In this document: positions 4,945-51,141 of the stretch, one piece after another
How positions within the stretch are numbered: position 1 is the stretch's first letter
How the letters are laid out: every line of letters starts with the position of its first letter
The notes under the pieces: generated by a model
Databases searched by the model: none
Told to the model about the DNA's origin: nothing
The model's input: the letters and a program-made list of their open reading frames with translations, nothing else
Source: an uncultured Candidatus Bathyarchaeia archaeon
GTDB lineage: Archaea > Thermoproteota > Bathyarchaeia > 40CM-2-53-6 > CAYOZM01
Assembly (NCBI GenBank): GCA_964533795.1
Contig: CAZHMI010000001.1
Location: forward strand, 51,869-115,868
Length of the DNA stretch: 64,000 nt
Reading direction: 5' to 3'
Position numbers and translations under genes: made by a program

Positions 4945-6132
4945 CTACCTCCTTATGTTCACCCAGTCTATCCCTTCGATGCCCACTCCACTCTCGAGGA
5001 TTCGAAATGTCTTCCTCGCGATCTCCTCGATATCATTTTGTGTTACGTCTCTTCCACCAAGTCCAGCTATGAAATTCTTCGTCAACGGCTTCTCTGGCAG
5101 ATCGGATAGCGCGCTCCTCACCTCTGTGAAAAGTATCCCTTCCATTCCGAAGCTTATGTCACGATCGATAATAGCGAGAGCTTTGGCTCTCATTCCAATT
5201 TCTCTTACGGCTTCTCGTGGAAATGGCCTGAAGACTCTTATTCTCGCTGAACCCACTCTATATCCTTCATCTCTAAGCTTCCTTACAGCTAACTTGGCTT
5301 CGCCGCCGATGGTCCCTATAGAAACTAAAATTACTTCCGCATCATCACACATGTATTCTTCAATTAGGCCGCCATAGTCTGGAAAACCCAATTTTTCTGA
5401 ATATTCTTTAGCAACCTTAGGTATGAGTTGCTTCGCGTTCTGCAAAGCCTCATGCATGAAGTATCTTAATTCCATATAGTATTCTGGTGAAAGCATGTTC
5501 CCATGCGTAACAGGGTTCTCAACATCGAGTACCCATCCGGGCCTAAACGGTTGAAGAAAATCATCTATCTCCTTCTGGTCTGGGATTTTTACCGGCATAC
5601 TTGTATGGGATAGAATGAAGCCTTCTAGGCAGATCATCGCTGGCATTAATACTCTTTGATCCTCACATACCCGATATGCTTGAATTATACTGTCAAATAT
5701 CTCTTGATTCGATGCGCAGTACACTTGAATCCAACCCGTGTCTCTCTGTGGTAACGAGTCCCCATGATCCGTCCATATGTTCCAAGGTGGACCCATAGCG
5801 CGATTGACCACAGCCATCACTATAGGCAGTCTAGCCGCGCTAGCCCAGTGTAACATTTCGTGCATGTAAGCTAGACCATGTGATGATGTCGCCGTAAAAG
5901 TTCGAGCTCCGACGGTCGAAGCGCCTATGCATGCGGACATTGCACTATGTTCAGACTCTACACAAATGTACTCAGCGTTCATCCTTCCCGAGTCTACGAG
6001 TTCAGCTATCTTCTCAACTATCTGAGTTTGCGGTGTAATCGGATAGGCTGCTACCACTTGAGCCCGAGCTGCAAGGGCAGCCAACCCTGCAACATGGTTT
6101 CCAGTCTCAACTATAGTCTTAAACATTCTCAT
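4945..6132 (-). CDS. porA: 2-oxoacid (pyruvate-type) ferredoxin oxidoreductase alpha subunit
   Basis: The N-terminus GNHVAGLAALAARAQVVAAYPITPQT is the typical PorA/VorA start. It overlaps porD by 4 bp. Confidence 0.85.
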   Translation of the reverse strand: MRMFKTIVETGNHVAGLAALAARAQVVAAYPITPQTQIVEKIAELVDSGRMNAEYICVESEHSAMSACIGASTVGARTFTATSSHGLAYMHEMLHWASAARLPIVMAVVNRAMGPPWNIWTDHGDSLPQRDTGWIQVYCASNQEIFDSIIQAYRVCEDQRVLMPAMICLEGFILSHTSMPVKIPDQKEIDDFLQPFRPGWVLDVENPVTHGNMLSPEYYMELRYFMHEALQNAKQLIPKVAKEYSEKLGFPDYGGLIEEYMCDDAEVILVSIGTIGGEAKLAVRKLRDEGYRVGSARIRVFRPFPREAVREIGMRAKALAIIDRDISFGMEGILFTEVRSALSDLPEKPLTKNFIAGLGGRDVTQNDIEEIARKTFRILESGVGIEGIDWVNIRR

Positions 6133-7134: not shown

Positions 7135-7692
7135 ATGCCTTCTAAGACCCGAATGCCAGACGTAAAGTGCCCTGTCTGCGGTGCCCAGAGTCTAACGGAA
7201 CAGAAGACGAAATATATTGTAGACTACTTTGGGCCTGTTCTACTTACCACAATCGTTTGCGCCAACTGCGGTTTCAAACATAGCGACGTCATCTCCCTCA
7301 ATGTACAAGAGCCGGCCTCCATAAGCGCGTCGATAGAAGACCGAGAAGATTTGAAGATGCCCGTAGTACGTTCCAGTAGCGCTACTATTCAAATCCCTGA
7401 ATTCGGTGTGCTCATCACCCCTGGACCGGTAGCTGAAGGATTCATTTCCAACATCGAAGGAGTTTTAGAGAGAGTTGAACAGGCTACGCGCATGCTACTT
7501 CGCGATCCAGAGAAAAGGGATCAAGCCGAAAAATTTTTGCGGAAGATAAAAAGAGCGAGAGATGGATACGCTAAATTCACGTTAATCATCGAGGATCCTC
7601 TTGGGAATAGTGCGATAATATCTAAGGATGAGAGAAAAGTCAAAAGAAGAAAGCTGACTAACAAAGAGATAGAGAAACTTAGGGCCAAGTGA
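7135..7692 (+). CDS. ZPR1-type zinc-finger protein
   Basis: CPVCG...(Y)FGPV...CANCGFKHSDV matches the ZPR1 zinc-finger pattern CPxCG...IPxF...CxxCGxK. Confidence 0.6.
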   Translation: MPSKTRMPDVKCPVCGAQSLTEQKTKYIVDYFGPVLLTTIVCANCGFKHSDVISLNVQEPASISASIEDREDLKMPVVRSSSATIQIPEFGVLITPGPVAEGFISNIEGVLERVEQATRMLLRDPEKRDQAEKFLRKIKRARDGYAKFTLIIEDPLGNSAIISKDERKVKRRKLTNKEIEKLRAK

Positions 7693-7789
7693 CAAACCTC
7701 ATTGCCTAATCACCGATAGACATGTTGCGATCGCGATAATTCCAAAAGGCTTTTCTCATGCATCCTCTTATCAATGATGAAGACTCTAT

Positions 7790-8080
7790 ATGTCCCAACC
7801 TCGTGACTTAAGTTCCAAGATGGTCGACATCTTCCATCTGGCTGAGCGGTATCTCGATAGGAAGGTTATAGTAACGATCGATAAAGATCATGGTTTCGAA
7901 GGGACACTATCAGCCGTCTCAAGGTCCCCTCCTGGGATCTGGCTTTCTGGCGCAGACGCTGTAATATTTCGAAGCACTTTAGCAAATCCTATTCCTCAAA
8001 TAGTCTCTCGTCATAAGAAGAGTGAGATTTTCATTAATCTGAACTCTGTTCAGCGGATGGAGATTCTCCCATCCGAATGA
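7790..8080 (+). CDS. Small protein, possibly Sm-like fold (tentative)
   Basis: KVIVTIDKDHGFEGTLSAV...WLSGADAVI loosely resembles the Sm1 motif and EIFINLNSV loosely resembles the Sm2 motif. The resemblance is weak. Confidence 0.3.
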   Translation: MSQPRDLSSKMVDIFHLAERYLDRKVIVTIDKDHGFEGTLSAVSRSPPGIWLSGADAVIFRSTLANPIPQIVSRHKKSEIFINLNSVQRMEILPSE

Positions 8081-9268: not shown

Positions 9269-9801
9269 CATTTCTCTCTAGAAGACTTTAACACCTAGAC
9301 AAATTGAATAAGATCCTTAAATCATAGCCGGATTTACGGCTCCTTAAGGAAACCACCACAAGTGGTGAAAAAGGTGGTCAATTATCGATGAATGTCAACG
9401 CCATATAAGACGCTTGTGAAGCTTAATGACTATATTTTGCCTTCTTACACCACACTCTTTTCATCAAAATATGTCTACATGGACGCCGGGTTGCTAATCA
9501 GCAAAAAAAGGTTACAACGAAATAAACCCACGACAAACCGAATGACTCACAGCATATTCTCAGGACATGCTAGGCTAAGACACCAGTCCTTCTCCCATAT
9601 CGCCCTCTTTATGAAAGACTCTGCATACGAAAGCTTTAGCCTAAATCGCCGTTTGAAGGCTCCATACTACCTTGGAAAGTATGGATTGAGTCATGGTTAG
9701 AATGATCTTTCCTTGCTTTTGCAACGAAACACATAAGTGCCTTCTATGCCTTACCTTAGTTTCAAAATGCGGTTCGAACTGATTTTCAAGGATGATGTGG
9801 A

Positions 9802-11421
9802 ATGAAGTCTGGAAAAGGGATTCTTTTACTCCTCTTAATTATTGCAGCAACTTTCTTGGTATTTTCAAGCTCCGTTGAAGCAGCAGTTCCCCCTCAACTC
9901 AAAGCATCTAAGACCATAACGCCAAGCTTTGCCAAGGCTTCCAACGATCTTACAATAACGATACGCCTCGAAGGTATCGGCGAGCCTGCATTGGCTCCTA
10001 CGCCCGCAGATATCGTGCTTCTCGTAGATAGATCGGGCAGCATGAAAGGCCAGAAGCTTACTGATGCTAAAACTGCGGCGAAGACCTTCGTGGATCTGCA
10101 AGGGTCGAACAATAGGGCTGAACTCATCTCTTTCGCAGGTACGGCCATAATTGAAGTGCAGTTCACAAGCATGACTGCAGACGGCAAGACTACGGTCAAG
10201 AATGCTATCGACAAGTTGACCTCGGTTGACAAGACCAATATCTATGAGGCGATACAGAAAGCGAATAGTGAACTTGAAACTAAGGGCAGAGATAACGTTC
10301 TACTGGTTGAAATCTTACTAACAGATGGAAGACCCACCACCGGAAACACGGATGCCGATGACATAATAGATTTAGCTGTTAGCGCTAATGCGACGGGAAT
10401 TCGAATCTACACAATCGGATTGGGCAACGATGTCGACGCAAACTTGTTGAGCAGTATCGCTAACGCGACTGACGGCAAATACTATTTCGCGCCCACGAGC
10501 GCAGACCTCCAAGCGATCTACACAGAAATTTCTGAGGAAATTTCGAAGATAGTTGGAACCGACATTAAAGTTCGTGAAGAGTTGCCGACAACGCTTGTCA
10601 CATACAACAACGATGCGACAGTCGCGCCTTCAAGCGTTCAAGATGGGAAGTTGACTTGGAATGTAGGAACATTGGACGTCGGCGACATATGGCAAGTCAC
10701 GTTTACTGTGCACGCCATTAAAGACGTTCTCGTCGATGCCACTGTTGTTCAAGCTAAGGTCGAATACATCTTAGCAGGAGCGTCTCAAACTATGAATCTC
10801 ACACCAGGCATAATCGTCCGCGATTTTTCTGCTGTCGAACAGGTTGCCTCAAAGACATCGGCAACTGTTGGCGAAGTAGTTCAAGTAAATGTCACCGTGA
10901 AGAACCTCGGCACAAAGTCTGAAACTTTCAGTGTTGGAGCGTACTATAACGATCTATCCATCGCCACTCGCACGGTTACATTAAGCGCCGGAGCCTCCTC
11001 CGTCCTCACTTTCAATTGGAATACCACGAACGTTGCACCTGGAACCTACAACATATCAGCAAAAGTTGATACCGGTAATGCGCTTACCGAAACCAACGAG
11101 ACTAATAACGTCTGTTTGAAGCCGCTCTATGTAACGATTACGACAGGCGGCGAAGGATTTCCTTTTCTGCTTCTTGCACTTCTCGCCGTTTTCATTGCTA
11201 TCGCCGTTCTCCTCCCCGTACTAGGGATCGCTGGAAGAGGAGCCCCACCGCCAGCAAGACCCCCGGCTGCTCGACCGGTGAGATGGGTTCCCCGTTTTAG
11301 ACCTAGTCGCGGAATTGGATTCTGGAGGAGGAGGGTTGTCTGTCCAATCTGCCTCATGCCAGTTCAATACGATCCGGCTTCCAAACGATGGTACTGTCCA
11401 TACTGCCGGCGGTACTGTTAG
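9802..11421 (+). CDS. Secreted/membrane-anchored vWA-domain protein with CARDB-like Ig domains and a C-terminal TM helix followed by a proline-rich segment and a cytoplasmic zinc ribbon
   Basis: Signal peptide; a vWA MIDAS region (LLVDRSGSM...LLTDGRPT); CARDB-like segments ending ETNETNN; a hydrophobic stretch FPFLLLALLAVFIAIAVLL; then PPPARPPAARP and CPICL...CPYCRRYC. Confidence 0.75.
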   Translation: MKSGKGILLLLLIIAATFLVFSSSVEAAVPPQLKASKTITPSFAKASNDLTITIRLEGIGEPALAPTPADIVLLVDRSGSMKGQKLTDAKTAAKTFVDLQGSNNRAELISFAGTAIIEVQFTSMTADGKTTVKNAIDKLTSVDKTNIYEAIQKANSELETKGRDNVLLVEILLTDGRPTTGNTDADDIIDLAVSANATGIRIYTIGLGNDVDANLLSSIANATDGKYYFAPTSADLQAIYTEISEEISKIVGTDIKVREELPTTLVTYNNDATVAPSSVQDGKLTWNVGTLDVGDIWQVTFTVHAIKDVLVDATVVQAKVEYILAGASQTMNLTPGIIVRDFSAVEQVASKTSATVGEVVQVNVTVKNLGTKSETFSVGAYYNDLSIATRTVTLSAGASSVLTFNWNTTNVAPGTYNISAKVDTGNALTETNETNNVCLKPLYVTITTGGEGFPFLLLALLAVFIAIAVLLPVLGIAGRGAPPPARPPAARPVRWVPRFRPSRGIGFWRRRVVCPICLMPVQYDPASKRWYCPYCRRYC

Positions 11422-11515
11422 AACAGTTCAGTCATCTCTCCCACTCTATTTTTACGTAGACCGTCTCTGAGAAGGGAATAGAATTCTTTCGGTAGGAAGT
11501 GTTTTGGCGTGAGCA

Positions 11516-11878
11516 ATGCTCCTAGTTTTAGATGCCTCTCGAGGTAGCTGTATGTCTCCTTTGGGATTTGTTTCGAATAAAGAATACTCGCGGCTGCAAC
11601 ACGAAAAGGAAGAGGTTAAGCGGAACTTTCATGAAGCGAATAAGAAGATTCAACGTCTCACCGCTGAGAACAGCGCCCTAGTCAAAAGGAACAAGCTTCT
11701 TGAGAATCGGTTGGTAGTGGTCGAGAGAGAAAGGGATGACTTGAAAGTCAGAGTTGACACTTTGATAGAGGAGCGACAGCTTTTCCAGAGGTTGATAGGC
11801 CAGCTTGAGGCAAGAGCTAAGAAAAGAAAGAAAGAGGAATTAGCAGGGCAAAGTTTCCCCTCGAACCCAAAGGTTTAG
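11516..11878 (+). CDS. Coiled-coil hypothetical protein
   Basis: Heptad-rich charged sequence (KRNKLLENRLVVVERERDDLKVRVDTLIEERQ). There is no homolog I can name. Confidence 0.4.
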   Translation: MLLVLDASRGSCMSPLGFVSNKEYSRLQHEKEEVKRNFHEANKKIQRLTAENSALVKRNKLLENRLVVVERERDDLKVRVDTLIEERQLFQRLIGQLEARAKKRKKEELAGQSFPSNPKV

Positions 11879-13647
11879 ATCAGACCATTCAACTCGGCGA
11901 TCAAGTCGTTCGCTTGGCCGATAAGATCTATCGCAAAGTCTTCCGTTATATGTTTATCTGATTGCGCTTGAACGTGATTTATGAATGCGTTAAGTATGTT
12001 TATCGCTGTCTTATATTGCCCTTCCTCAATTTTGTTTTCGCACGCTTCAAGTTTCGCTATTAGACTCCGTCCTATCCCATTATTATCGATCTGACCTGTC
12101 TCTAACCCGCTCTCGATTGTTTCAACCAGATCGTCGATTGAGATTCTTTGCGTAGGTTCGTCCTCGTCCCCATCATCGTCTCCAGTCGAGTTGACGACGC
12201 TAAAGCTTACGGCCTCGGTAGCAGTGTTGCCTGCAAAATCTATAGCCGTCACAGTTAGAGTGTACTCGCCAAGCGATAGACTGGAAAGGACGGAACCGTT
12301 TCCGACAGATGCGCCGTCAAGCCTTGCAGTAGCGTTTTCCAGACCCGACGTTGTATCTGATGTCTCAAAGGTTACTGTGATGGACTCATCAGATGCGTAG
12401 CTTCCAGCCTCTGGAGAGGTTATTATTATCGTTGGAGCAGTCTTGTCGACCCCTACAGTTATGTTCTTGGTCTCCTCAATGTTTCCAGCCATATCGGTTG
12501 AGTAGAATTCTATTAAGACTTGGCCATCAGCTGTAATATTTAGCGGTTGATAGTATTTCGCCCAAGTGCCATTGTTGAAGCGATACCATGTCTCGTTCAG
12601 TAGAGCTGTTGAATTCACTAGGAATGTGACTTGGACGTCTGAGATATACCAACCGTTGTTTCCAACCGTTCCTGAAAGAGAAGCTGTGGTTGTCGGAGAC
12701 GTTGTCGCTAATGTTATCGTATCGAAGTAGGCTGGCAAAGCGGTTCCATCGCTGAATTTCACATAAACTGTCTTTAGGCCCTCTCCATCTGAAAGATTCC
12801 AAGCTCTTGTGCCTGCATATGCTTCCCATTCTGTCCAGTTCATGTTATTGTTTGAGAATGACATGTTGATAACGCCGGGCATCACAAGCTCTGCTGAGAG
12901 TGTCAAGTTCACTGTGGGCGAATTTGTGTAGACTGCGTCGTTGTTTATCTTGATCGGTTTCTCTACGGTGATGTTCGTGGTTCTTGTCTGTTCTACATTT
13001 CCGGCATGGTCCGTTGAGTTATACTGAATCGTGAAGTTTCCATCTAAGCTGACTAGGAACGGTTCATTGTAGCACACCCATGAGTTGTTGTTTATGTTAT
13101 AGGCGGTCTCTGCAACTCCGGAACCGTCTAGGTTGTCCTCTGCCAATAATGTTACAAGCACATCTGATCGGTATTTGCCGTCAGGTCCAAGTACGCCATC
13201 CATAGCCAAGGTTGTAGTTGGGCTGACGTGATCTTCAACTATTGTGAGTTGAATTTGTGCGGACTGATTGATTGAATCTGATACGGCGCGTACAGTTACA
13301 TTATAGGTTCCAGTAGTGGCGTTTAGGGATGCCGTGAACGTCATCGTTACGTTTGCTGGCGGGGTTAATTGTTCAGGTTGGAATGCAACCGTCGTTCCGT
13401 TCGGTAGCCCTGTGACATTCGCTGGTTGGAAGCGGACTGTTTGGTTGAAGTTTCCAATAGGTTCTACGATGAGGGTTACTGTCGCTTGTCCAGCTTGGCT
13501 TAATGTTACCGAGGCTGGCGACGCTGTAAGGGTGAAACTGTCCTCTTGACTTGAGGCTGGGTTTACTAGTGGTGAAAGTAATGCTAGAAATATAGTTACC
13601 AAGACGAACGCTCGCGTTCCGAAAACGCTTCTTCCATGTATCTCCAT
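11875..13647 (-). CDS. Large secreted surface protein with multiple Ig-like/adhesin domains, dense N-glycosylation sequons and a C-terminal helical FIMAH-like module
   Basis: N-terminal signal peptide; many N-x-S/T sequons (NQT, NVT, NGT, NAT ...); an acidic linker DDDGDEDE; and a C-terminal helix bundle AKLEACENKIEEGQYKTAINILNAFINHVQAQSDKHITEDFAIDLIGQANDLIAEL. Confidence 0.65.
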   Translation of the reverse strand: MEIHGRSVFGTRAFVLVTIFLALLSPLVNPASSQEDSFTLTASPASVTLSQAGQATVTLIVEPIGNFNQTVRFQPANVTGLPNGTTVAFQPEQLTPPANVTMTFTASLNATTGTYNVTVRAVSDSINQSAQIQLTIVEDHVSPTTTLAMDGVLGPDGKYRSDVLVTLLAEDNLDGSGVAETAYNINNNSWVCYNEPFLVSLDGNFTIQYNSTDHAGNVEQTRTTNITVEKPIKINNDAVYTNSPTVNLTLSAELVMPGVINMSFSNNNMNWTEWEAYAGTRAWNLSDGEGLKTVYVKFSDGTALPAYFDTITLATTSPTTTASLSGTVGNNGWYISDVQVTFLVNSTALLNETWYRFNNGTWAKYYQPLNITADGQVLIEFYSTDMAGNIEETKNITVGVDKTAPTIIITSPEAGSYASDESITVTFETSDTTSGLENATARLDGASVGNGSVLSSLSLGEYTLTVTAIDFAGNTATEAVSFSVVNSTGDDDGDEDEPTQRISIDDLVETIESGLETGQIDNNGIGRSLIAKLEACENKIEEGQYKTAINILNAFINHVQAQSDKHITEDFAIDLIGQANDLIAELNGLI

Positions 13648-14320: not shown

Positions 14321-15094
14321 TTATCTGCAATGCATGACTGTTATTGTCAGTGAGGCTAAGTCGACCGTCATGTCGAATATATGACCCAGACCTTCTTCAT
14401 TTACGCCCCATGTGAAATGCGTTTCTATCAGTTGCCCCTCAATTACAAGTGAATCCAATCTGTAGGCCGCGTTTCCCATAACAGTCAAGAATGTTGTTTC
14501 CGCTATCTCTTGCGCTTCTTCTTCAGTTACCCCATCGGTTATGTCTACGTCTACAACTACATCCAGCTTTCTTCCTTCATTAACTACGGCTATGAATCTT
14601 GTTGGTCTTGTGGTTGGTTGAGGCAACTCCCTGTCTGCTAAGAGATCCCAGATGCCATCGCATATGGCCGCAATTATTTCCCCTCTCTGTCCTACCGTGA
14701 CTATCGCCTCATGTTTAGTCACGACTTGTAGGAGGATTTGGCCTGTTCTGTCTCCATGGCCAGGGTGAGCTGTATAGAATGCGATTCGGATAACCCAAGA
14801 ATAGCCATAGGGAGGGGTTTCATTGACTGTCTTCTGAGTTTCAATCACCTCGAATCCTTCCTCTAGACCGTCGAACCTGAATGTGGATGTGCTACGGACG
14901 AATATTGCGGCTGTAGCCACAGCTTCTTCTTGATTGATGCCGCCAGTTACAGTTTCTATTATGTGATTTACGAGCACCATGATGCCGTTCTGAATCGTAA
15001 TCAACTGATTTGGCAACAGCGTCTCTGAGGCCCATTCATCCACCCATACCACGGTCTTATTGGTTTTCACATCTGCTTCCTTGTGTATCGTCAC
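14321..15094 (-). CDS. Hypothetical protein (257 aa), likely co-transcribed with the upstream membrane-anchored ORF
   Basis: Long clean ORF on the same strand, immediately downstream of 15206..15715. No recognisable motifs. Confidence 0.45.
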   Translation of the reverse strand: MTIHKEADVKTNKTVVWVDEWASETLLPNQLITIQNGIMVLVNHIIETVTGGINQEEAVATAAIFVRSTSTFRFDGLEEGFEVIETQKTVNETPPYGYSWVIRIAFYTAHPGHGDRTGQILLQVVTKHEAIVTVGQRGEIIAAICDGIWDLLADRELPQPTTRPTRFIAVVNEGRKLDVVVDVDITDGVTEEEAQEIAETTFLTVMGNAAYRLDSLVIEGQLIETHFTWGVNEEGLGHIFDMTVDLASLTITVMHCR

Positions 15095-15205: not shown

Positions 15206-15715
15206 TTAAGGCATCAAATCTACTTTAAACGTTTTTCCGGCATGAAATTTGCTTGAATAGTAGGCTATGTTATCCATGCCGATTGTGAGGTTATCGTCGG
15301 CTCCGGCGAACCCTCCTGTTCTCTTCCACTTCATCTCTAAGTATGTTCGTGGACCTTGAATCGACATGACTTCAACGTAGACTTGGGGTGCATCCAGAAT
15401 CCCGGGTTGGTAGTGAATTTTGCCTTCTACAGTGACTTCAGAGAACAAATATGGCGTTGGGTCTGGTTCCTGCGGAAACGTCAAGGAGATCGCTCCTGTC
15501 GAGTCTTCGAGTAAGATCGGTACCCCGAATTGGAACGTCACCATTATCATCGTGCCGCGAAGCTTGACTAACCTATTGTCGTACGACGCTGGATTCGCCG
15601 AGATCTCTCTTATTGAAATGTTGCGTGTGTAGTAATATCTCTCGTAGATGACTGTACTAACTCCAACTAGAACTAGAAGAATCGCGACGATTGTGATTTT
15701 TATATATCTGTGCAT
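15206..15715 (-). CDS. Membrane-anchored hypothetical protein (N-terminal TM helix)
   Basis: MHRYIKITIVAILLVLVGVSTVIY TM anchor followed by a soluble domain. Confidence 0.45.
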   Translation of the reverse strand: MHRYIKITIVAILLVLVGVSTVIYERYYYTRNISIREISANPASYDNRLVKLRGTMIMVTFQFGVPILLEDSTGAISLTFPQEPDPTPYLFSEVTVEGKIHYQPGILDAPQVYVEVMSIQGPRTYLEMKWKRTGGFAGADDNLTIGMDNIAYYSSKFHAGKTFKVDLMP

Positions 15716-24477: not shown

Positions 24478-25884
24478 ATGGAGACCACGTCAATGGCGAG
24501 TTTGAATAGAAGTCGTTTTGCAGCACTCGTGATCATTGCGCTTTGCATTAGCATTAGTCTATTGGCCTTCTTCTACTTCGGTGTCCTACAAAGCGTCTAT
24601 CAAGAGCGAACGACGGGGCAAGACGCGTATAGCCAGCAGACTGAATTTCTGCTTCGCGAGGTTTTAGAAAAGATAGGCCAAGTTAGAGAACTCTCTCCAC
24701 CACAAAACATACCTTTGAAGGCCGTCACGGTCGACTGGGTTGAGGAGAACTGGGGAAAAAAATTTGCTGAAGAAGCATCGACGGAGTTACAAGTTGAAGA
24801 AGAGATCTATAAAGCACTTTTCCTCATGCCTCAGAACCTTTCTCTTGCTGACGTTATGGTTGAGCAGTCTGGGGCTACGATGGCGGCGGTGTGGGAAGGT
24901 AGCTTGTATGTTGTTAGAGAACATTTCAATCCATTCGATAAACTGTCTGCGGAGCGGACTTTGGCTCATGAGATTATGCACATCATGCAGGAGCATTACT
25001 TCAAGGATCCTGACGCGCGTCTTCACGACGAACTCCAAGCTTGGGGCGCTCTAATAGAAGGAGACGCAGGATTTACTGCGGACAAGTATATAGACGAAGC
25101 AATGGCTAGACCCGTAATTTCGGATGTCCTCGTATTTGTCTCCCTTTCTGAGAAACCATTGATCGTGACTCACTTCCTCGCAGTGGAAATGCCAGAATCA
25201 CTTGTTGAACTATGGCTTTTCCGCTACAGATACGGGGAGAATTTTGTCTCTGCGTTATACGGAGTAGGCGGGTGGGATAAGGTTAACGCAGCCTACATGA
25301 ATCCTCCTCGAACTACTGAACAGATTTTGCATCCGGAAAAGTATCTTGAAGGTGAGAGTTTCGCGGTGGTAGATTCTATCTCGTTGAATAGTTCCTACTG
25401 GAATCTTGTTAAGACGGAAAGGTTTGGCGAACATTTCGTACGTGTAATGTTGAGCCGCCACATACCGCGAGATGATGCTGTAAAGGCGGCAGAGGGATGG
25501 CAAGGAGACAATTTCACGTATTATAGGAACGAAGAAAGTCATCTATTCATATGGAAGATCGTTTGGGATACTGAGCGCGACTCGATTGAATTCTTCGATT
25601 CGTTTGGACAAATGATGGATGCTGTCGGAGCTCGTCAGATACAGCCTAGCTGCAAATGTTCCTCGAATAACACCGTCAAGTGGAAAGCTGGAAATCAATA
25701 TGTTTCACTCGTAAGAAACCAATCGTCAACCATCATCACTGGTTCCACTGAGCTGAACGGGTACCAGCCAAATTTCTATGCAAGCTCGCCCATCCCATTT
25801 CTGGCCGTATCTTCGGGCTCGTACGACATGAAAGATCTATATTTGTGCCAAGAGAACTTGAAAACTTCTAGAAGATTCGCTTAA
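24478..25884 (+). CDS. Membrane-anchored putative zinc metallopeptidase (HExxH)
   Basis: N-terminal TM (AALVIIALCISISLLAFFYF) and an HEIMHIMQEH (HExxHxxQ) motif. Confidence 0.5.
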   Translation: METTSMASLNRSRFAALVIIALCISISLLAFFYFGVLQSVYQERTTGQDAYSQQTEFLLREVLEKIGQVRELSPPQNIPLKAVTVDWVEENWGKKFAEEASTELQVEEEIYKALFLMPQNLSLADVMVEQSGATMAAVWEGSLYVVREHFNPFDKLSAERTLAHEIMHIMQEHYFKDPDARLHDELQAWGALIEGDAGFTADKYIDEAMARPVISDVLVFVSLSEKPLIVTHFLAVEMPESLVELWLFRYRYGENFVSALYGVGGWDKVNAAYMNPPRTTEQILHPEKYLEGESFAVVDSISLNSSYWNLVKTERFGEHFVRVMLSRHIPRDDAVKAAEGWQGDNFTYYRNEESHLFIWKIVWDTERDSIEFFDSFGQMMDAVGARQIQPSCKCSSNNTVKWKAGNQYVSLVRNQSSTIITGSTELNGYQPNFYASSPIPFLAVSSGSYDMKDLYLCQENLKTSRRFA

Positions 25885-39197: not shown

Positions 39198-42100
39198 CTA
39201 CATATAGTCGCTTAATCCACGTTGTTCATGTTCGCGCCTACGCTCTTGAAAGAGAGAATCAATCTCCTTCTCAATCAAAAGGAGCCTCTGCCAATAGTAC
39301 CAAAGATTCTCATCCCTGAAATCTGCATACGCAACCTTACTCGCCTCTAAGTCTGTTCGACCAGTTCCATACTTCAAGATGAGTTCCTTAGCAACCTCCA
39401 GATACTTCTCAATTGTGCCGCGATAAACTGTTAGCGAGATCTTGCCGCCGCATTTAGGGCATATTCCGCGTAGAGGAACCCGCCTAAACTTAGCGTTACA
39501 CTTTACACATCTAAGCTTCTGACTTGAGAAAGCCTTCAAATTCCCCGTAACATCACGCATAAAGTGAGTGGACAGAACTTTCCTAGCAACTTCACCGGCG
39601 TTAACAGCTTTAATCTTCTCTGCTAGACCAAGTTGCTCTCTAACCTTCTCCAGCATAGACCCTAATTTCTTATAGGTGCTCTCATGATTCCCAACGTTGA
39701 TGTCGCCAACTCTGTGCGTGAAGCCCCAAGACTCAAATTGATCCTCTTTACCCAGCCTGTGATACACCGTTTCAATGAAATCCGTTGCAACTCTAGGGTC
39801 CGTCCCTCGGGCAGCCTCCTCAAAGAAGACGGTCGGAAATCCGTCAACCACCTCTATGTTAGTAGCTTGACGAGCAACTTCAGACGGGTTAATAACCAAG
39901 GTTAAGAGCAGGGGGGCATCCATTAATCCGCCAATCTTAGCAGGGAGGAAGGCCCTAGAGAAATTCAAGAGCACGTCCAAAGCTAGGATCAATGCGTCCT
40001 CATCTCCATCGCAGTCACGTCTTTTCGCGGCGTGCCAGAAGGGGTGAGCGAAGCAAGCATTCGCCTTCGTAAACCCTATGATCCTACCAGCCACACCAAC
40101 AGATGTGTGTGGTGATAGCCCTATGACCATGTGGCCAACGAGATCGTCCTTAGATCGAACCTTATAGTAAGCAGGCAGCCCATACAACCGCTCAAGAAGC
40201 TCGTCAAGGAATCCAGCAACTCTGACGAAATATTCTGCGCACGTATCTGGAATTATTACGTCCCCAACCTTAATGGCGCAAAGCTGATCATCGCTAGCTA
40301 GGTCCTCGCCATCCATATCATAATCGTAGCCTAAGCCGCGGATCTTCCGAACAGGAACCCCCACTTCCCTTGGCTTGAAGTGCGTCAAAGGACAGTTCGT
40401 TGCATCGAAACGTACCGTTCCATCCTTGAAAACAGAAAGATTGTACTTAGCCCTTAGAATTCCCTTTTCGATGGGTTCAGGCACTCTGTTACCACTCGTT
40501 AGCCCTCTAACGCCCTTCACGACTTCGAGAGACTTCTCGACGCGAAGTCGGTTACACGCAGAATCAAAGATGTCCTTGAGGTCGATCGTTCTCCTCTCAT
40601 AAGAAACCACGGGAATTTTGCAAGCTGGACAAATGTCTTGCGGAAAGCTTCTTCCACAGTTAGGGCAGGCACGCTCGATTGAAGCCTCTACATGACACTT
40701 AGGACATGAAACTAGGTGCATTAACTCCTTACACGCGGGACAACGCCGCCTCACCAGCTCAACAGCAATCATTTGCTTAGTCGCAGCCGCCTCAACGATG
40801 TTCCTTCTTGGTCCGCCAGAGAGGCCAACCGGAAAGAGACAGTGAACTACTGGCCGCATTTCTCTGCGTTTAGCTTTCTCAGGTCGGCCCATTCTCGCTC
40901 CAACGAAAGTTGGGGCTTTATCATGAATCTTCACGCCAGACAGTTTGCTCGCAAGCTCCACGGTAGAGCTAGCGTCAAGTTCTCCATCGCCAACTTCCTT
41001 ATGCAACCCCAAACATCTATAGATGATCGCGGCTTCATCGTCAATCCTTATGATTTCGCCGGTCAGAACGTGTGGTATACAGAGCGTTTCAAGGGTTGCC
41101 TTCAACTCAGGGTTAAACTTCACCTCCACCTTAACCGGGAAAGCGCCTTCATGCTGAAATGCGGCAGAGCCGAAATATCGGCGAAGATTCTTGAACTCGT
41201 CGATCGATACGCTTCCCCAGAAATACGTGTATCTCGGATGCAACGGGATGCCTAGGGTATCAGATAGTTTAAGCGCCTCAATTGGCGTAGGTTTAGCCTC
41301 AAGAGCATCGGAGAGTAGGGAAGCGAGCCGCGGCTCCTCTATCTCGGTCTTCAACGCAATTTGCGATATAGATAATCCAGAGGCCTTGACGGCGCCGACA
41401 AGGAGTTCGCCCCACCACTCTTCTACGAACCCAGAAGGAACCAAAGGACGGTTGTTCTCAAGAAACTCTCCAAAATCAACAAGAAGATCGCCTAGAAACA
41501 GTATAGCTTCAACTGAACCAGCAACCCGTTCAGCAGTCTTCAAATCTTCAACCCGAAGAACCGCCCCATCATTCAGTCTTACGATTGGAGGCTCAATGGA
41601 CTCAACCGGAAGCACCACCCCCGCTTTCCCAGGCTTCTCTATCCGCAATTGTGTTCCAGCTGCGATGAAGCCCCCCAAAATAGCCATTGACGCAGGATGA
41701 ACGCCCAAAGCGGCCAATCCAGTATTCCTGGAACGGCCGTAGCGAAGTCTAAACCCTCCAGCAGACGCGGGAAAAGAGAAGATGGGTCTGCCTGCAACCA
41801 CATCTTCCATGTACATGAACTCACGAACTTCCTCATTCTCCGTCGTAGGCGGCCTTATCTCTCTCAGCCAGCCCCAGCCGCCGATCCCGAGCTTCTCCAC
41901 TATCTTCAGGACCTTCTGCGTTCTCCCAACGAGTCCATCGTTAACGACCCGTAGTGCACCTCCGCGAACGCGGTTCGTTTCAATTCTAGGGAGATTCCTG
42001 AAAGAAGCCACTTCGATAGGGTCTGTCTCTACACCGTTGACTTCAACAGGCAGATTCAACACGGCGTTGATAAGTTCTCTGTCAGAGAGCTTGTATTGGA

Positions 42101-42695
42101 AACGTGCAACTTCTCTTTCATAGAGCCTCAGCTCCTCTACGAATCTTCTCGCCTCCATCTCTGTACTCTTGTATCTATCCAACCCGAGTAAACGCCTGAC
42201 GAAGTCCGCGACGATAAGAATAAGAGCCATCTCCGTCCCTCCTGCTGAACGGATAGGACCCGCGAAATAAACCGCCAGATACTTGGTCTTATCCGGATTC
42301 GTCTTTATCCTAACGCTAGATATTCCTTGAATCGGAGCGACCGTGACGCCTTCATCAAGGATTCCCAAAGCTGTTCGAATGGCTTGCTCAGCAGCAGCCT
42401 CCCCTGAAACGCCAAATCTTCCGTAAACTATCTCCTCAGCAACCTTGAAAGCCAACTCTTCCCTAGGCATCAGTTTGCTGAGCTCACGAATTCTCGTAGC
42501 TATTTCAGGTGGCCCAACCGATTTTTCAACTCGCTCAGCTAAATCCAAGGTGACGATTGATTCTGGCTGAGAAGCAGGATCAAGCCCTTTCAATCGAGCC
42601 TGTTTAGCTATCGAGGCGATCTCCTCGAAGTCGCGTTCGAGCTTCAAGAAGTATTCTTCTTGAAGCTTAAGAAGGGGGCTCTCCAAAATATGCAC
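39198..42695 (-). CDS. DNA polymerase II (PolD) large subunit DP2, intein-free
   Basis: 1165 aa; N-terminal LAERVE.LVGP..IA.RIREL region; central zinc-finger cysteines (CPACK...CPKCH...CPNCG...CPACK; CVKCNAKF...CPKCGG). Confidence 0.9.
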   Translation of the reverse strand: MHILESPLLKLQEEYFLKLERDFEEIASIAKQARLKGLDPASQPESIVTLDLAERVEKSVGPPEIATRIRELSKLMPREELAFKVAEEIVYGRFGVSGEAAAEQAIRTALGILDEGVTVAPIQGISSVRIKTNPDKTKYLAVYFAGPIRSAGGTEMALILIVADFVRRLLGLDRYKSTEMEARRFVEELRLYEREVARFQYKLSDRELINAVLNLPVEVNGVETDPIEVASFRNLPRIETNRVRGGALRVVNDGLVGRTQKVLKIVEKLGIGGWGWLREIRPPTTENEEVREFMYMEDVVAGRPIFSFPASAGGFRLRYGRSRNTGLAALGVHPASMAILGGFIAAGTQLRIEKPGKAGVVLPVESIEPPIVRLNDGAVLRVEDLKTAERVAGSVEAILFLGDLLVDFGEFLENNRPLVPSGFVEEWWGELLVGAVKASGLSISQIALKTEIEEPRLASLLSDALEAKPTPIEALKLSDTLGIPLHPRYTYFWGSVSIDEFKNLRRYFGSAAFQHEGAFPVKVEVKFNPELKATLETLCIPHVLTGEIIRIDDEAAIIYRCLGLHKEVGDGELDASSTVELASKLSGVKIHDKAPTFVGARMGRPEKAKRREMRPVVHCLFPVGLSGGPRRNIVEAAATKQMIAVELVRRRCPACKELMHLVSCPKCHVEASIERACPNCGRSFPQDICPACKIPVVSYERRTIDLKDIFDSACNRLRVEKSLEVVKGVRGLTSGNRVPEPIEKGILRAKYNLSVFKDGTVRFDATNCPLTHFKPREVGVPVRKIRGLGYDYDMDGEDLASDDQLCAIKVGDVIIPDTCAEYFVRVAGFLDELLERLYGLPAYYKVRSKDDLVGHMVIGLSPHTSVGVAGRIIGFTKANACFAHPFWHAAKRRDCDGDEDALILALDVLLNFSRAFLPAKIGGLMDAPLLLTLVINPSEVARQATNIEVVDGFPTVFFEEAARGTDPRVATDFIETVYHRLGKEDQFESWGFTHRVGDINVGNHESTYKKLGSMLEKVREQLGLAEKIKAVNAGEVARKVLSTHFMRDVTGNLKAFSSQKLRCVKCNAKFRRVPLRGICPKCGGKISLTVYRGTIEKYLEVAKELILKYGTGRTDLEASKVAYADFRDENLWYYWQRLLLIEKEIDSLFQERRREHEQRGLSDYM

Positions 42696-47442: not shown

Positions 47443-48690
47443 GTGTCTGGCAAAACCCTAGAAGGAATCTTCGATAAGTTTCTCTCTGGCTCGACGATAT
47501 TCCTAGACAGAAATGTTCTCAGACACGACTATGTTCCTGGAACACTCCCGCACCGAGACGAACATATTCACAGACTCGGTGGAATACTAGGACCAGCGTT
47601 GAACTCATCGAAAATATCAAACATATTCCTCTATGGCAAGACGGGAACAGGAAAGACAGCGGTAGCAAAGTTCGTTCTCTCTCGCCTTGAGCGCAAAGCG
47701 CAGGAAGTGGGGGTTCCTCTAGGAAGCGCCTACGTGAACTGTAGGTTGGCAGGGACTAACTATAGGGTCCTAGCTGAGTTATGCCGAGCGGTTGGGGCTG
47801 AAGTACCCTTCACGGGGCTTGCAGTCGGGGAACTTCTTGATCGCTTTCGCGAAGCGTTGAGCCATACTGGATCCCCGCTCCTAGTTGTTCTAGACGAAAT
47901 AGATGCATTAGTCCGGCGGCAGGAAGACGATGTTCTTTTGTACGAACTGACGCGGATTAACGAAACGCTGAGGCGAAGCTGGGTTTCTCTCATTGGTGTG
48001 TCTAATGATCTTCATTTCAAAGAGTTTCTCGACCCTCGCGTTTTAAGTTCCTTGAGCGAAGAAGAAGTAGTGTTCAAACCGTACTTAGCGGACGAGCTGT
48101 ACGACATTCTTTCTGAAAGAGCGGGGACGGCGTTTCGGCCGGGTACGATGCACGATGCGACACTGCGGTTGTGTGCAGCATTAGCAGCTGGTGAGCATGG
48201 CGATGCGCGCAGAGCCCTCGATCTTCTTAGAGTGGCGGGAGAGATAGCGGAGAGAGAAGGTTCTTTTGCAGTTACGGAACAACACGTCAGGCTAGCCCAA
48301 CAGAAAATTGAACGAGATCGTGTTTCTGAAGTTCTGAAATCTCTTCCAGTTCACTCAAAGCTTTTGTTGACAGCGGTTCACTGCATCAGCATCAAGCTAC
48401 CTGATGGCGCGGTGACAGGGGATATCTACGAGGTCTACAATGAGCTGTGTAGTCAGGCCGGGATCGAGCCGCTAACTCAAAGGCGGGTCAGCACGCTTGT
48501 GAGCGAGTTAGACGTCATGGGCATCCTTAACGCCCGGATCGTTAGTTTCGGTAGATACGGAAGAACGAAGAGGATCCGCCTAGCGGCTTCAAGCAAAGCC
48601 ATTATAGAAGTATTCTCAGAGGATAGTCTAGTCGGGCGCCTACTAAAACATGTTCCAAGATGCCTCAAGCAACGTAAGAGTAGCCCTTAG
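47443..48690 (+). CDS. cdc6: Orc1/Cdc6 replication initiator (AAA+ with C-terminal winged helix)
   Basis: Walker A LYGKTGTGKT, Walker B LLVVLDEID, sensor regions and a C-terminal wHTH. Confidence 0.9.
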   Translation: MSGKTLEGIFDKFLSGSTIFLDRNVLRHDYVPGTLPHRDEHIHRLGGILGPALNSSKISNIFLYGKTGTGKTAVAKFVLSRLERKAQEVGVPLGSAYVNCRLAGTNYRVLAELCRAVGAEVPFTGLAVGELLDRFREALSHTGSPLLVVLDEIDALVRRQEDDVLLYELTRINETLRRSWVSLIGVSNDLHFKEFLDPRVLSSLSEEEVVFKPYLADELYDILSERAGTAFRPGTMHDATLRLCAALAAGEHGDARRALDLLRVAGEIAEREGSFAVTEQHVRLAQQKIERDRVSEVLKSLPVHSKLLLTAVHCISIKLPDGAVTGDIYEVYNELCSQAGIEPLTQRRVSTLVSELDVMGILNARIVSFGRYGRTKRIRLAASSKAIIEVFSEDSLVGRLLKHVPRCLKQRKSSP

Positions 48691-49252
48691 AACAGTCGGA
48701 GTAGACGACGGAGGATTTCAATCACACTGGTCCTCGATTGGCAGAAAAGGCAAAGCCGTTCTCGCAGCCGTCCTGTTAAGTGATTACTGGATTGACGACA
48801 TTCGCGTTGGAGAGATAACGGTTGACGGGCTAGATGCCACCGTTATTCTCGCAAAGCTTCTCACCTCTTGGGAGTTTGACGCCGTACTCCTAAGCGGAGT
48901 ATCCTTCGCCGGCTTCAACCTTATAGACGCGGAGACCATCCACAAGACGTTTCGGAAACCGGTTGTAATTGTTTCGGGAGACAAGCCAGACAACGTAGCG
49001 GTGAAGAAAGCCTTACAGAAACATTTCACGGATTGGGAGACAAGATGGAAGATCGTCAAGAAACTTGGTAGAATCTATCGCGTAGCTCCAAAAGTTGCGG
49101 AGCCTCCTCTATACTTTGAGGCGGTTGGGTTAAGCGCCAAATCGGCGAGGTTGATGATACGGGCTTTAGCCGTTTCCTCACGACTTCCGGAACCCATCAG
49201 AGTAGCGCGACTCCTCGCGCGCGGCTTGACGCGGCAGGGTGATGGCGCTTAA
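48650..49252 (+). CDS. DUF99/UPF0215 family protein (endonuclease-V-like fold)
   Basis: GVDDGGF near the N-terminus is typical of DUF99. It abuts orc1 and polD-DP1. Confidence 0.5.
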   Translation: MFQDASSNVRVALRTVGVDDGGFQSHWSSIGRKGKAVLAAVLLSDYWIDDIRVGEITVDGLDATVILAKLLTSWEFDAVLLSGVSFAGFNLIDAETIHKTFRKPVVIVSGDKPDNVAVKKALQKHFTDWETRWKIVKKLGRIYRVAPKVAEPPLYFEAVGLSAKSARLMIRALAVSSRLPEPIRVARLLARGLTRQGDGA

Positions 49253-50776
49253 CTATTGCGGGGATGTGAAGTCCATCATATGTACCTCCAGCGTTTGGAG
49301 GTTTAGGAGCGGCAGCATTCCAGGAGTAGGGTCGAGACCCATCTTCCTCTGGTAGTCAGTTTGCGCCTGCCAAGCCCCGCAGTTCACAACGAGGGTTCCG
49401 CGGTAGGTTTCATACTTGGTGACGTGTATATGACCTGATTGAAATACGTCCGGCGGGGTTTCCACGACAAGATCGTCCTCTGCTTCTGGCGCGATCGTAG
49501 TCCTTTTGCCGTACTCGGGCGCTAGATGCCTGCATTTGAGTAGGAGCTCCATCGCCTTCTCTGGGGTTTGAAAGCTGAGATTAGGGAAAGTTGCTACAAC
49601 ATCATCTAAACTTCTTCCATGATAGAGTAGAAAGTGTACATTGTGCAATTTTATTTCCGCTGGATTTCCTAGCGATATGACGTCTCTAGACGTGTAGATT
49701 GGGTCAGCGAACTCTCTCGGTATCGCAGGTTGCGGAAGCGCTTGTCTAACCGCGTCATGGTTACCAGGAATCAAGACGACATCTATGTAGTCTGGTATCT
49801 GTTCTATGTATTGCGCGACTAGTTTGTACTGCTCACGGGCATCCTTTATGCTCAGTTCATCCTCTTGCCTTGGATACACGCCGATTCCGTCAACCAAGTC
49901 TCCAACAATTATCGCATATTTCGTGCTCTCCGCGATCTCTGTTTGCTTCTGCCCCCCTATCTTTCCGTTGAGCCAAAGGACGAAACGATTGAAAGCATCC
50001 TCCAAGAAAGTTCTGCTTCCTACATGTATGTCGGAGAGAAGGGCTGCATAGACCGGCTCATCAGCGCGGTTAGCTCTCTTCTCGGGTATGTCAGGCAGGA
50101 TTATGTTTTGGCCTACGAACAAGTCTTCTCCTGCTCTGGTTGCTTCGATGCACACAACTTGGTCCAGCGGTGTTCTCTGTGCCGCCTCGACTAAAAGGCG
50201 GTCAGCTTCTGCTGGAATCAATACGGTAGCTACGTTCTCTAGGTCGTCAACTTGGAGAAAAATTCTTCTTCTCTTCTCCCTCTTCTCCATAACCATCGCG
50301 ATGAACTTCACTTTTTCGTTTAGGGGGGCTTCCAACGCTTCGCCGATAGTCCTCGCGTCTCTTACATCCAACCTTTCTCGCAGAATTCTACTGATCTTAT
50401 TGAATCTGTCTCGGAAGTGTTTGGTAAAGTCTTCTATGGTACCGCCTGACCCTATCACCTTCGTCGGGTCCCGTAGGATTTGAATTCTACTTTCCACTTC
50501 CTTCGCATAAGGAACTCGCGCTCTTAACGATTCCGTGGTTGGTGGCGTCACTAACTCCTTTTCCTTTCTCAGCCTCGCCGTAACACTCTCAACAATATCT
50601 TTCGTTACCATGATCGCCCTCGGTGTCAGCTGATTTGCTTCTTTGACTATCTCTTTCGTTACTTCCTCTAGCTCCTCTCGGTCTTGTAGGAGCTTCAGGA
50701 TCTCAAAGGCTTCTCTATCCAGCTGATATCCTGCCAAGAGGATTGTTTTGACCGCGGTCTTGAGACGCTCTGACAA
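49253..50776 (-). CDS. DNA polymerase II (PolD) small subunit DP1 (calcineurin-like exonuclease)
   Basis: Phosphoesterase motifs (LSDIHVGS; VGDLVDG; IPGNHD; LYHG; GHIH) and a DP1-type N-terminal region. Confidence 0.85.
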   Translation of the reverse strand: MSERLKTAVKTILLAGYQLDREAFEILKLLQDREELEEVTKEIVKEANQLTPRAIMVTKDIVESVTARLRKEKELVTPPTTESLRARVPYAKEVESRIQILRDPTKVIGSGGTIEDFTKHFRDRFNKISRILRERLDVRDARTIGEALEAPLNEKVKFIAMVMEKREKRRRIFLQVDDLENVATVLIPAEADRLLVEAAQRTPLDQVVCIEATRAGEDLFVGQNIILPDIPEKRANRADEPVYAALLSDIHVGSRTFLEDAFNRFVLWLNGKIGGQKQTEIAESTKYAIIVGDLVDGIGVYPRQEDELSIKDAREQYKLVAQYIEQIPDYIDVVLIPGNHDAVRQALPQPAIPREFADPIYTSRDVISLGNPAEIKLHNVHFLLYHGRSLDDVVATFPNLSFQTPEKAMELLLKCRHLAPEYGKRTTIAPEAEDDLVVETPPDVFQSGHIHVTKYETYRGTLVVNCGAWQAQTDYQRKMGLDPTPGMLPLLNLQTLEVHMMDFTSPQ

Positions 50777-51025: not shown

Positions 51026-51141
51026 GCCGGGATGGCTGAGTGGTTAAAGCGACGGCCTCGAGATCTTTATACGGATGGGCCTGACAGGATAGCCGTTGGG
51101 CGCTTGCGCCCTCGAGGGTTCGAATCCCTCTCCCGGCGCCA
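51026..51141 (+). tRNA. tRNA-Ser (anticodon CGA), type II long variable arm, ~28-nt intron in the anticodon loop, encoded CCA
   Basis: Acceptor stem GCCGGGA/TCCCGGC; D arm GCT-GAGTGGTTAA-AGC; anticodon stem ACGGC/GCCGT with loop CTCGAGA, interrupted by an intron at ~51064-51091; variable arm GGGCGCTTGCGCCC; T arm GAGGG-TTCGAAT-CCCTC; then G-CCA. Confidence 0.7.

Follow-up and report, generated by a model that had tools for sequence, protein, structure and literature searches.

Within a 64,000-nucleotide (nt) stretch of DNA from an uncultured Candidatus Bathyarchaeia archaeon (GenBank assembly GCA_964533795.1, contig CAZHMI010000001.1, positions 51,869 to 115,868; the whole stretch is hereafter called the window), three adjacent genes were analysed, named here A (9802..11421, + strand), B (11552..11878, + strand) and C (11875..13647, - strand). 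Gene A, the main subject of this report, encodes a protein of 539 amino acids (aa), predicted to be a type-I membrane protein, in which a vWA domain with a conserved MIDAS (an adhesion site that depends on a metal ion) is combined with a C4 zinc ribbon placed behind the transmembrane (TM) helix. Our best explanation, held with modest confidence, is that protein A acts as a MIDAS adhesin or receptor, and that its single ribbon, predicted to be cytoplasmic, serves to couple it to a partner, or to gather it into clusters, on the inner side of the membrane.

Architecture and predicted topology of protein A

Protein A was delimited by the open reading frame (ORF) call, Pfam, an AlphaFold2 model and the layout of its homologs, and consists, in this order, of a signal peptide, a DUF11 sandwich split by the vWA domain, a CARDB domain, a TM helix, a linker and a zinc ribbon. 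The predicted signal peptide (aa 1-27, 9802..9882; MKSGKG, a hydrophobic core, then VEA/A) is indicated by hydropathy (Kyte-Doolittle peak 2.67), by a helix at aa 3-21 of the model and by comparison with homologs, since a signal segment was seen in every full-length one. It is followed by two strands that open a DUF11 beta-sandwich of the CLIPPER type (aa 30-62, 9889..9987; model strands aa 32-40 and 49-59), by the vWA domain (10009..10524; PF00092 at aa 70-241, E 3e-26, 93 bits, cut-off 23.8), with the MIDAS residues D76-x-S78-x-S80, T145 and D175, and by the rest of the DUF11 sandwich on the C-terminal side (aa 250-340, 10549..10821; strands aa 250-338, PF01345 profile positions 33-100). A CARDB beta-sandwich (PF07705 at aa 346-438, 10837..11115; E 6e-15, 55.7 bits, cut-off 22.7), matched by sequence to the PDB entries 3idu and 2kl6, forms a membrane-proximal stalk. 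Beyond it lie the TM helix (aa 452-478, 11155..11235; Kyte-Doolittle peak 3.18, model helix aa 452-475), a Pro/Arg-rich linker of predicted cytoplasmic location (aa 479-511, 11236..11334), recognised by its composition and by values of the predicted local distance difference test (pLDDT) <50, and the C4 zinc ribbon CPIC-x14-CPYC (aa 514-535, 11341..11406), with cysteines C514, C517, C532 and C535, which is supported by the cysteine pattern, by conservation among homologs and by the model. An initial annotation of this region, made from the letters alone, had already proposed the vWA MIDAS and CARDB domains, the single TM helix, the Pro/Arg-rich linker and the C4 ribbon, and all of these were recovered by the domain searches, hydropathy and composition.

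The AlphaFold2 model of protein A, built on 24 homologs (mean pLDDT 83), has the signal helix at aa 3-21 and two strands at aa 32-59; the vWA fold spans aa 69-248, further strands occupy aa 250-338, another beta-sandwich covers aa 342-445, and a long helix comes at aa 452-475, with a disordered linker and small hairpins at aa 508-532 (pLDDT 73-80) beyond it. The unspliced protein matches Pfam DUF11 weakly, at aa 252-319; when aa 30-62 were joined to aa 250-345 and rescored against the DUF11 profile (114 positions), the match widened from positions 34-100 (22.1 bits) to positions 2-100 (26.2 bits, cut-off 24.6). Since the splice completes the DUF11 match above its cut-off, the vWA domain is placed inside the DUF11 beta-sandwich, and the strands that precede and follow it belong to one and the same sandwich. 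Furthermore, D76, S80, T145 and D175 were invariant across 24 sequences, position 78 being S or T, and the MIDAS is thus intact and conserved.

Only two hydrophobic segments were found in protein A, the signal-like N-terminal one and that at aa ~452-478, and the 59-aa tail that follows the latter holds 13 R/K residues vs one D/E residue. By the positive-inside rule, the tail with its ribbon would therefore lie in the cytoplasm and the vWA domain outside the cell, as had been suggested initially. The protein carries 7 N-x-S/T sequons vs 4.4 expected, an enrichment that is not significant. Pfam and NCBIfam searches at E<=0.1 gave no LPXTG, PGF-CTERM or similar sorting-signal model in protein A or protein C, and a match to a 'marine sortase target' model reached 50.7 bits, far from its cut-off of 551; a sortase-type anchor was rejected, as no C-terminal sorting-signal model matches either protein.

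Structural relatives of protein A

By Foldseek, the solved structures closest to protein A are the vWA protein 4fx5, SpaC, PitA, ArnB/ArnE, Mfa5, ITIH1, integrin beta3 and alpha-I domains, and ANTXR2/TEM8. Among these, ArnB/ArnE of Sulfolobus and the Catenulispora protein 4fx5, as well as YfbK-type proteins, share with protein A a vWA domain with MIDAS that comes after the first two strands of a sandwich, and the matches to ArnB/4fx5-type proteins (E 3e-21 to 2e-14) cover both the vWA domain and the sandwich. The vWA-in-sandwich layout has been described for ArnB, the sandwich of which is bound by the zinc finger of ArnA (PMC12852372). ArnB, however, is soluble, acts as a regulator in the cytoplasm, carries a phosphorylated helical bundle and binds a zinc finger that ArnA supplies in trans, whereas protein A has a signal peptide, an additional CARDB domain, a TM helix and a ribbon of its own, predicted to lie on the other side of the membrane; the C-terminal regulatory helical bundle of ArnB was not found in protein A, where CARDB and the TM helix stand instead.

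These likenesses would allow a reversed topology, in which protein A, a relative of ArnB or Sec23/24, is tethered to the membrane on the cytoplasmic side, with the ribbon packed on the vWA/sandwich core. Such an arrangement is favoured by the ArnB structures matched (8s05 and 5a8j), which span the vWA domain and the sandwich, by the binding of the ArnA finger to the ArnB sandwich, and by the best Pfam match of the tail, zf-Sec23_Sec24 (20.3 bits). However, that match stays below its cut-off of 25, the TM helix and CARDB are interposed between ribbon and core, the ArnB bundle is missing, and an N-terminal signal sequence together with a basic C-terminal tail would set the parts of the protein on opposite sides of the membrane, so that we regard this topology as highly improbable. 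A Sec23/24-like cytoplasmic assembly was rejected on the sub-threshold zinc-finger match, the signal sequence and the intervening TM helix and CARDB.

The pilus-tip adhesins SpaC (6m48), PitA (7w6b) and Mfa5 (6to1), which are among the top structural matches, bear a MIDAS vWA head on Ig-like domains. These adhesins attach by sortase or pilus assembly, whereas protein A would be held by its TM helix, is devoid of an LPXTG- or PGF-type signal and has no pilus genes nearby. Integrin alpha-I and beta-I domains and ANTXR2/TEM8 (matches 6bxj, 1mf7, 9rt2 and 3n2n) belong to proteins that combine a MIDAS vWA domain, an Ig-like stalk, a single TM helix and a short cytoplasmic tail. In integrins and ANTXR this tail docks adaptors; the tail of protein A is unrelated to theirs, only the vWA fold being shared, and this archaeon has no known partner of the talin or actin type. 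The resemblance is thus best taken as an analogy of mechanism, and not as membership of the same family.

Conservation of the head and of the ribbon

A protein search with A returned 12 orthologs (82-90% identical) and 9 further homologs (33-39% identical, query coverage 81-100%), the most distant of which, P0022, is N-terminally truncated and has lost the first ribbon knuckle. In the full-length set (n=21, the window protein and 20 homologs), the signal segment, the DxSxS motif, the C-terminal TM helix and a ribbon spanning 22 residues were kept in 21/21 sequences, and the vWA/ribbon architecture accordingly extends to homologs of 33% identity. A single-protein genome scan with A gave domain-level relatives only, the best being a Bathyarchaeia metagenome-assembled genome (MAG) with a CARDB match only, and a literature search found no paper on an archaeal vWA protein with a zinc-ribbon tail.

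When the window protein was compared with its distant homologs, identity was 0.45 in the ribbon, 0.43 in the vWA domain, 0.30 in CARDB, 0.23 in the linker and 0.17 in the TM segment, which is nonetheless always there. Given the values of 0.45 vs 0.43, the ribbon is as constrained as the putative ligand-binding head, and is under purifying selection. Beyond the cysteines, the homologs share the signature CPxC..PL.Y.....RWYCPxCRRY, the conserved residues being the four cysteines, W530, Y531 and R537, whereas the spacer from the end of the TM helix to the first cysteine varies from ~9 to 35 aa.

In this context, a second explanation deserves consideration, which we judge possible, although clearly less probable than a docking function: protein A may be an envelope-structural protein that binds the S-layer or pseudo-periplasmic proteins of its own cell through the MIDAS, its ribbon being a folded, basic 'stopper' that fixes the orientation of the anchor and adds stability. 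The ectodomain is indeed short and stalk-like, CARDB and DUF11 are common in archaeal envelope proteins, the short linker of many homologs puts the ribbon at the membrane, and there is no conserved partner gene. On the other hand, a stopper would need neither a conserved non-cysteine signature (P515, Y, RWY and RRY) nor conservation at the level of the vWA domain, and a binding function is favoured by the presence of this ribbon in long soluble arrays and on kinases.

The initial annotation had also called the architecture unusual, which proved overstated, because the ribbon belongs to a large family found on many membrane proteins and because a parallel layout exists. The proteins P0039 and P0043 carry a signal peptide, a vWA domain, a TM helix, a Pro-rich linker and a double zinc ribbon (PF13240/PF12773), with the same order of parts and the same predicted topology as protein A. 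Their ribbons are of the short DZR type (CxxC-x10-CxxC), reach <=3.9 bits with the profile of the A ribbon, and are not accompanied by CARDB, and the likeness to A is probably convergent. Since these unrelated ribbons occupy an equivalent place, a ribbon of predicted cytoplasmic location behind a predicted extracellular vWA domain is a recurrent and not a unique arrangement.

The ribbon family

Besides the sub-threshold Pfam match of the tail to zf-Sec23_Sec24, NCBIfam gave no match to the tail of A, and no curated ribbon family searched (zf-Sec23_Sec24, DZR, Zn_Ribbon_1, Auto_anti-p27 and others) reached its cut-off on it. An exhaustive hidden Markov model search, in which the profile of the A tail was compared with 1.84 billion cluster representatives (50% clustering), retrieved 722 proteins at E<=1e-3, of which 104 reached E<=1e-10, mostly with 2-12 matched stretches each, that is, with tandem copies. 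A word-indexed search with the ribbon profile scored 19 candidates and yielded 2 matches. Among the 147 best new matches, 361 ribbons were detected by a regular expression, 353 of which have the CxxC-x14-CxxC span seen in A; the family signature reads CPxCGxxLxYIxxYxRWYCxxCxxY, and the copies are separated by low-complexity linkers. Protein A shares with the family the cysteine spacing and the P, L, Y and RWY positions; most members, many of them soluble, bear 2-12 tandem copies, whereas A has a single copy after its TM helix. The profile was specific, with a median of 23 bits per copy in the matches, against <=7.2 bits for other ribbons of the window, including those of ZPR1 and PolD, and <=3.9 bits for DZR ribbons. 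Neither the rest of the window nor the homolog loci examined held another ribbon of the family.

Pfam and NCBIfam gave scattered, mostly sub-threshold matches to many ribbon models on the ribbon arrays. Family members that bear a name are called 'zinc ribbon' or 'SAP domain-containing protein [Thermoplasmata archaeon]', whereas the MAG records of the array protein P0216 give it as bacterial. The family is large, devoid of a curated model and mostly archaeal by annotation, and has no entry in the curated libraries searched.

No TM helix was found in 81/147 of the best matches, which comprise small two-copy proteins and long arrays; three of these have a kinase catalytic motif upstream of C-terminal ribbons and no signal peptide. 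In 33/147 the ribbons are followed by one or two C-terminal TM helices, and SAP domains occur in this class (P0244 and P0228); in 16/147 the TM helices come first and the ribbons are C-terminal, as in A; and in the remaining 17/147 the strict regular expression detected no ribbon copy. Pfam scanning of 67 members found SAP domains in 12 and Pkinase in three. Ribbons are fused to Ser/Thr kinases, to SAP domains accompanied by a pair of C-terminal TM helices, to TPR repeats and to large surface proteins. The class in which TM helices precede the ribbons includes an MMPL/RND transporter and a membrane protein with a beta-helix, along with other type-I surface proteins such as P0356 and P0287. A further member of this kind, P0345 (1759 aa), carries papain protease, lectin, beta-helix and PKD domains, followed by a TM helix and two ribbons. 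Since ribbons of this type are fused to soluble kinases and many members have no signal peptide, the family appears to be an intracellular module, which fits the positive-inside tail of A and indirectly supports the initial proposal that the ribbon faces inwards.

A broader interpretation, which we consider doubtful, takes the 22-residue RWYC ribbon as a dedicated, hitherto undescribed and mainly archaeal cytoplasmic adaptor domain that ties diverse membrane proteins and soluble kinases to one submembrane scaffold. The ribbon would bind one common intracellular partner or associate with itself, and the set so tethered would comprise the vWA adhesin A, the 1759-aa protease/lectin surface protein, the RND transporter, the tail-anchored SAP-domain proteins and the soluble kinases. 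If this were true, protein A would be an archaeal functional analogue of integrin, coupling MIDAS adhesion outside the cell to an organised structure inside. In any case, the ribbon family merits definition, and could reveal a shared submembrane interaction network.

A role in signalling or linked to RNA is, in our estimation, less probable still. Under this hypothesis, the Arg-rich ribbon would bind RNA or ribosomes, or would be freed by intramembrane proteolysis to function in the cytoplasm, and protein A would be an outside-in sensor. The closest solved ribbons by sequence are those of the ribosomal proteins eS31 and eL43, Sec24 being weaker still, the tail of A holds 13 R/K residues, and SAP-domain proteins and kinases are found among the family. 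Nevertheless, the matches to the PDB are marginal (E 0.0015-0.007), Arg richness is not shared by the whole family (P0252 is Gln-rich), and no protease or regulator was linked to A in the loci of the distant homologs.

Proposed function of protein A

Returning to the adhesin or receptor explanation, cleavage of the signal peptide would lead to the display of protein A on the archaeal surface, where the vWA domain, held in the DUF11 sandwich atop the CARDB stalk, would be anchored by the one C-terminal TM helix. Through the metal ion of its MIDAS, the domain most likely binds a ligand, which would probably be the acidic side chain of some protein on another cell, on a surface or in the envelope of the same cell. 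Integrin I-domains, ANTXR/TEM8 and the pilus-tip proteins SpaC and PitA bind their ligands through the MIDAS metal. On the inner side of the membrane, the ribbon of the 60-aa tail, which is presumed to bind zinc, would provide docking or clustering, either with a putative cytoplasmic partner or with other copies of itself.

Several observations weigh against this explanation. Domains of the vWA type also serve non-adhesive functions, for example in chaperone cofactors or in regulators such as ArnB, and we know of no ligand, partner or phenotype for protein A. In the loci of the distant homologs, no conserved neighbour gene points to a partner. The linker measures only 9-16 aa in several homologs, and therefore any partner must act right at the membrane. 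Moreover, the nearest solved ribbons, marginal as these matches are, come from the RNA-binding ribosomal proteins mentioned above, and protein docking is therefore not the sole option for the role of the ribbon.

Archaeal surface adhesion and its link to the cell interior are poorly understood, and the family of protein A represents a compact and conserved test case, with a clear MIDAS head for a ligand search and one well-conserved ribbon, of predicted cytoplasmic location, for the pull-down of a partner. On present evidence, all parts of the protein belong to familiar kinds, and what has been gained is an annotation of use, not a surprise.

Protein C

Gene C encodes a protein of 590 aa, predicted to be secreted, which is rich in sequons, composed of multiple beta domains and closed by a FIMAH domain. 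After a signal-like N-terminus, its N-terminal region (aa 36-141, 13225..13542, - strand) carries 7 sequons, is modelled with a pLDDT of ~30 and gives a weak InlK_D3 match. Four beta domains follow (aa 143-485, 12193..13221, - strand), as judged from NCBIfam NF047446 (E 4.5e-34, 3 stretches, 116.7 bits, cut-off 40), Pfam Big_13 (E 2e-12, 3 stretches) and the model strands, three of them being of the OmpL47-type/Big_13 kind. The FIMAH four-helix bundle (aa 504-584, 11896..12138, - strand) matches PF22888 (E 4.6e-10, 40.4 bits, cut-off 24.8), and its helices were modelled by AlphaFold2 at aa 505-517, 523-541, 545-562 and 569-589 with pLDDT 80-94. The model as a whole has a mean pLDDT of 64, is confident from aa ~320 on, and places an acidic linker between the beta domains and the bundle.

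Such results bear out the FIMAH-like helical module that had been noticed initially at the C-terminus. The accompanying description of an 'Ig-like giant' calls for correction: a protein of 590 aa is no giant, and the best label for the beta domains is three OmpL47-type barrel domains with Big_13. Foldseek neighbours are the Ig-like strings of the giant adhesins SiiE and GhpA and S-layer proteins, and no relative of C or of its FIMAH segment was found in the PDB by sequence. In the proteins compared here, FIMAH co-occurred with melibiase, CBM6 and Big_13 domains; the literature search found no paper naming the FIMAH domain, only fimA/fimH, and the earlier attribution of this domain to bacterial wall-anchored adhesins was not confirmed. 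Compared with the Leptospira OmpL47/Big_13 surface proteins, C has three OmpL47-type barrel domains above the curated cut-off; nevertheless, it is not an OmpL47 equivalog (NF047441, 77 bits vs a cut-off of 250), the domain model NF047446 alone being passed, and differs from OmpL47 in being archaeal, dense in sequons and without an outer-membrane context.

Protein C contains 23 N-x-S/T sequons, vs 10.0 +/- 2.7 in shuffled sequences (z = 4.9), and is the densest of the 51 ORFs of the window, with 3.9 sequons per 100 aa against <=1.5 in all others, which substantiates the sequon packing described at the outset. Its 21 orthologs carry 20-26 sequons, and seven of the sites are retained by every ortholog that is not gapped at that position. 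Taken together, the protein is probably N-glycosylated. Protein C evolves much faster than A, while its number of sequons stays at 20-26. It has no hydrophobic segment other than that of the N-terminus, and no TM helix, lipobox or sorting signal was found in it.

Gene B and the neighbourhood of gene A

Gene B encodes a 108-aa coiled-coil-like protein, predicted to be cytoplasmic, and begins 130 nt downstream of A. The three ORFs lie where the initial annotation had placed them, apart from the start of the middle one, which is most likely 11552 and not 11516, because its orthologs begin there. B is a conserved ORF, and is considered a real gene because its orthologs differ by an in-frame 21-nt indel. 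The presence of a coiled-coil ORF between A and C had been noted initially; Pfam and NCBIfam gave only sub-threshold matches of B to coiled-coil families, and PHROGs gave no match to it. The gap between A and B (11422..11560) is 88% conserved among three relatives, with a T-run directly after the stop codon of A; the conserved ATG at 11552 is preceded, at a distance of ~25 nt, by a TATA-like TTTTAGA, which suggests that B may have a separate transcript with little or no leader.

The initial annotation had treated the three genes as a surface/adhesion locus, a reading in which A, B and C would act together, for example with A holding C at the surface and the ribbon binding B. Five loci of relatives indeed show the three side by side, C lacks an anchor of its own, and B, of predicted cytoplasmic location, lies 130 nt downstream of A. 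However, adjacency is confined to relatives at 82-90% identity, in which the whole region is collinear (POR, ZPR1, metallo-beta-lactamase, A, B, C and a 257-aa ORF), and is therefore uninformative. At the loci of four distant full-length homologs of A, all neighbours were different, neither a FIMAH protein nor a small coiled-coil gene being among them, and the genes upstream of these homologs were unrelated to one another. Besides, C is convergent to A and B, the genes appear by their sequence to form separate transcription units, and the orthologs of C are 64-72% identical whereas those of A are 82-90% identical in the same related genomes. A common action of the three is thus quite unlikely, the locus as first described is not real, and C and B are separate proteins without a demonstrable link to A.

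Neither the window nor any of the eleven homolog loci L001-L007 and L016-L019 contains a MoxR AAA+ gene or Bat partner genes, and a MoxR-vWA or BatA-D system was rejected on this account.

In one of the loci of distant A homologs (L003), two small proteins (5082..5429, - strand, and 7308..7910, + strand) have other N-terminal zinc-finger-like segments, with a Zn_Ribbon_1 match of 29.4 bits and a weak B-box-like match; neither belongs to the ribbon family of A. The non-coding gap upstream of A (9269..9801) is unusually long, at 533 nt, and measures ~560 nt in relatives and 263 nt in one clade; a 102-aa ORF within it (9392..9700) was not called in any relative.

Other features of the window

Beside C, two ORFs on the - strand, of 257 aa (14321..15094) and 169 aa (15206..15715), gave no Pfam, NCBIfam or PHROG match; the former is also called in relatives, the latter has an N-terminal hydrophobic segment, and both may be real genes. 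Further away, an ORF of 468 aa (24478..25884, + strand) begins with a signal-like segment, carries 6 sequons (z = 2.4) and gave no Pfam match at E<=1e-5; it may encode another glycosylated surface protein.

The window is archaeal, as seen from the PolD subunits DP1 and DP2, Orc1/Cdc6 and a tRNA match of 113 nt. Orc1/Cdc6 lies close to the PolD small subunit (47443..50776), and the PolD large subunit is found at 39198..42695; an arrangement of Orc1/Cdc6 with PolD is frequent near archaeal replication origins. The Rfam tRNA match (51026..51138, 52.7 bits) was missed by ARAGORN, and its length is consistent with an intron-containing archaeal tRNA.

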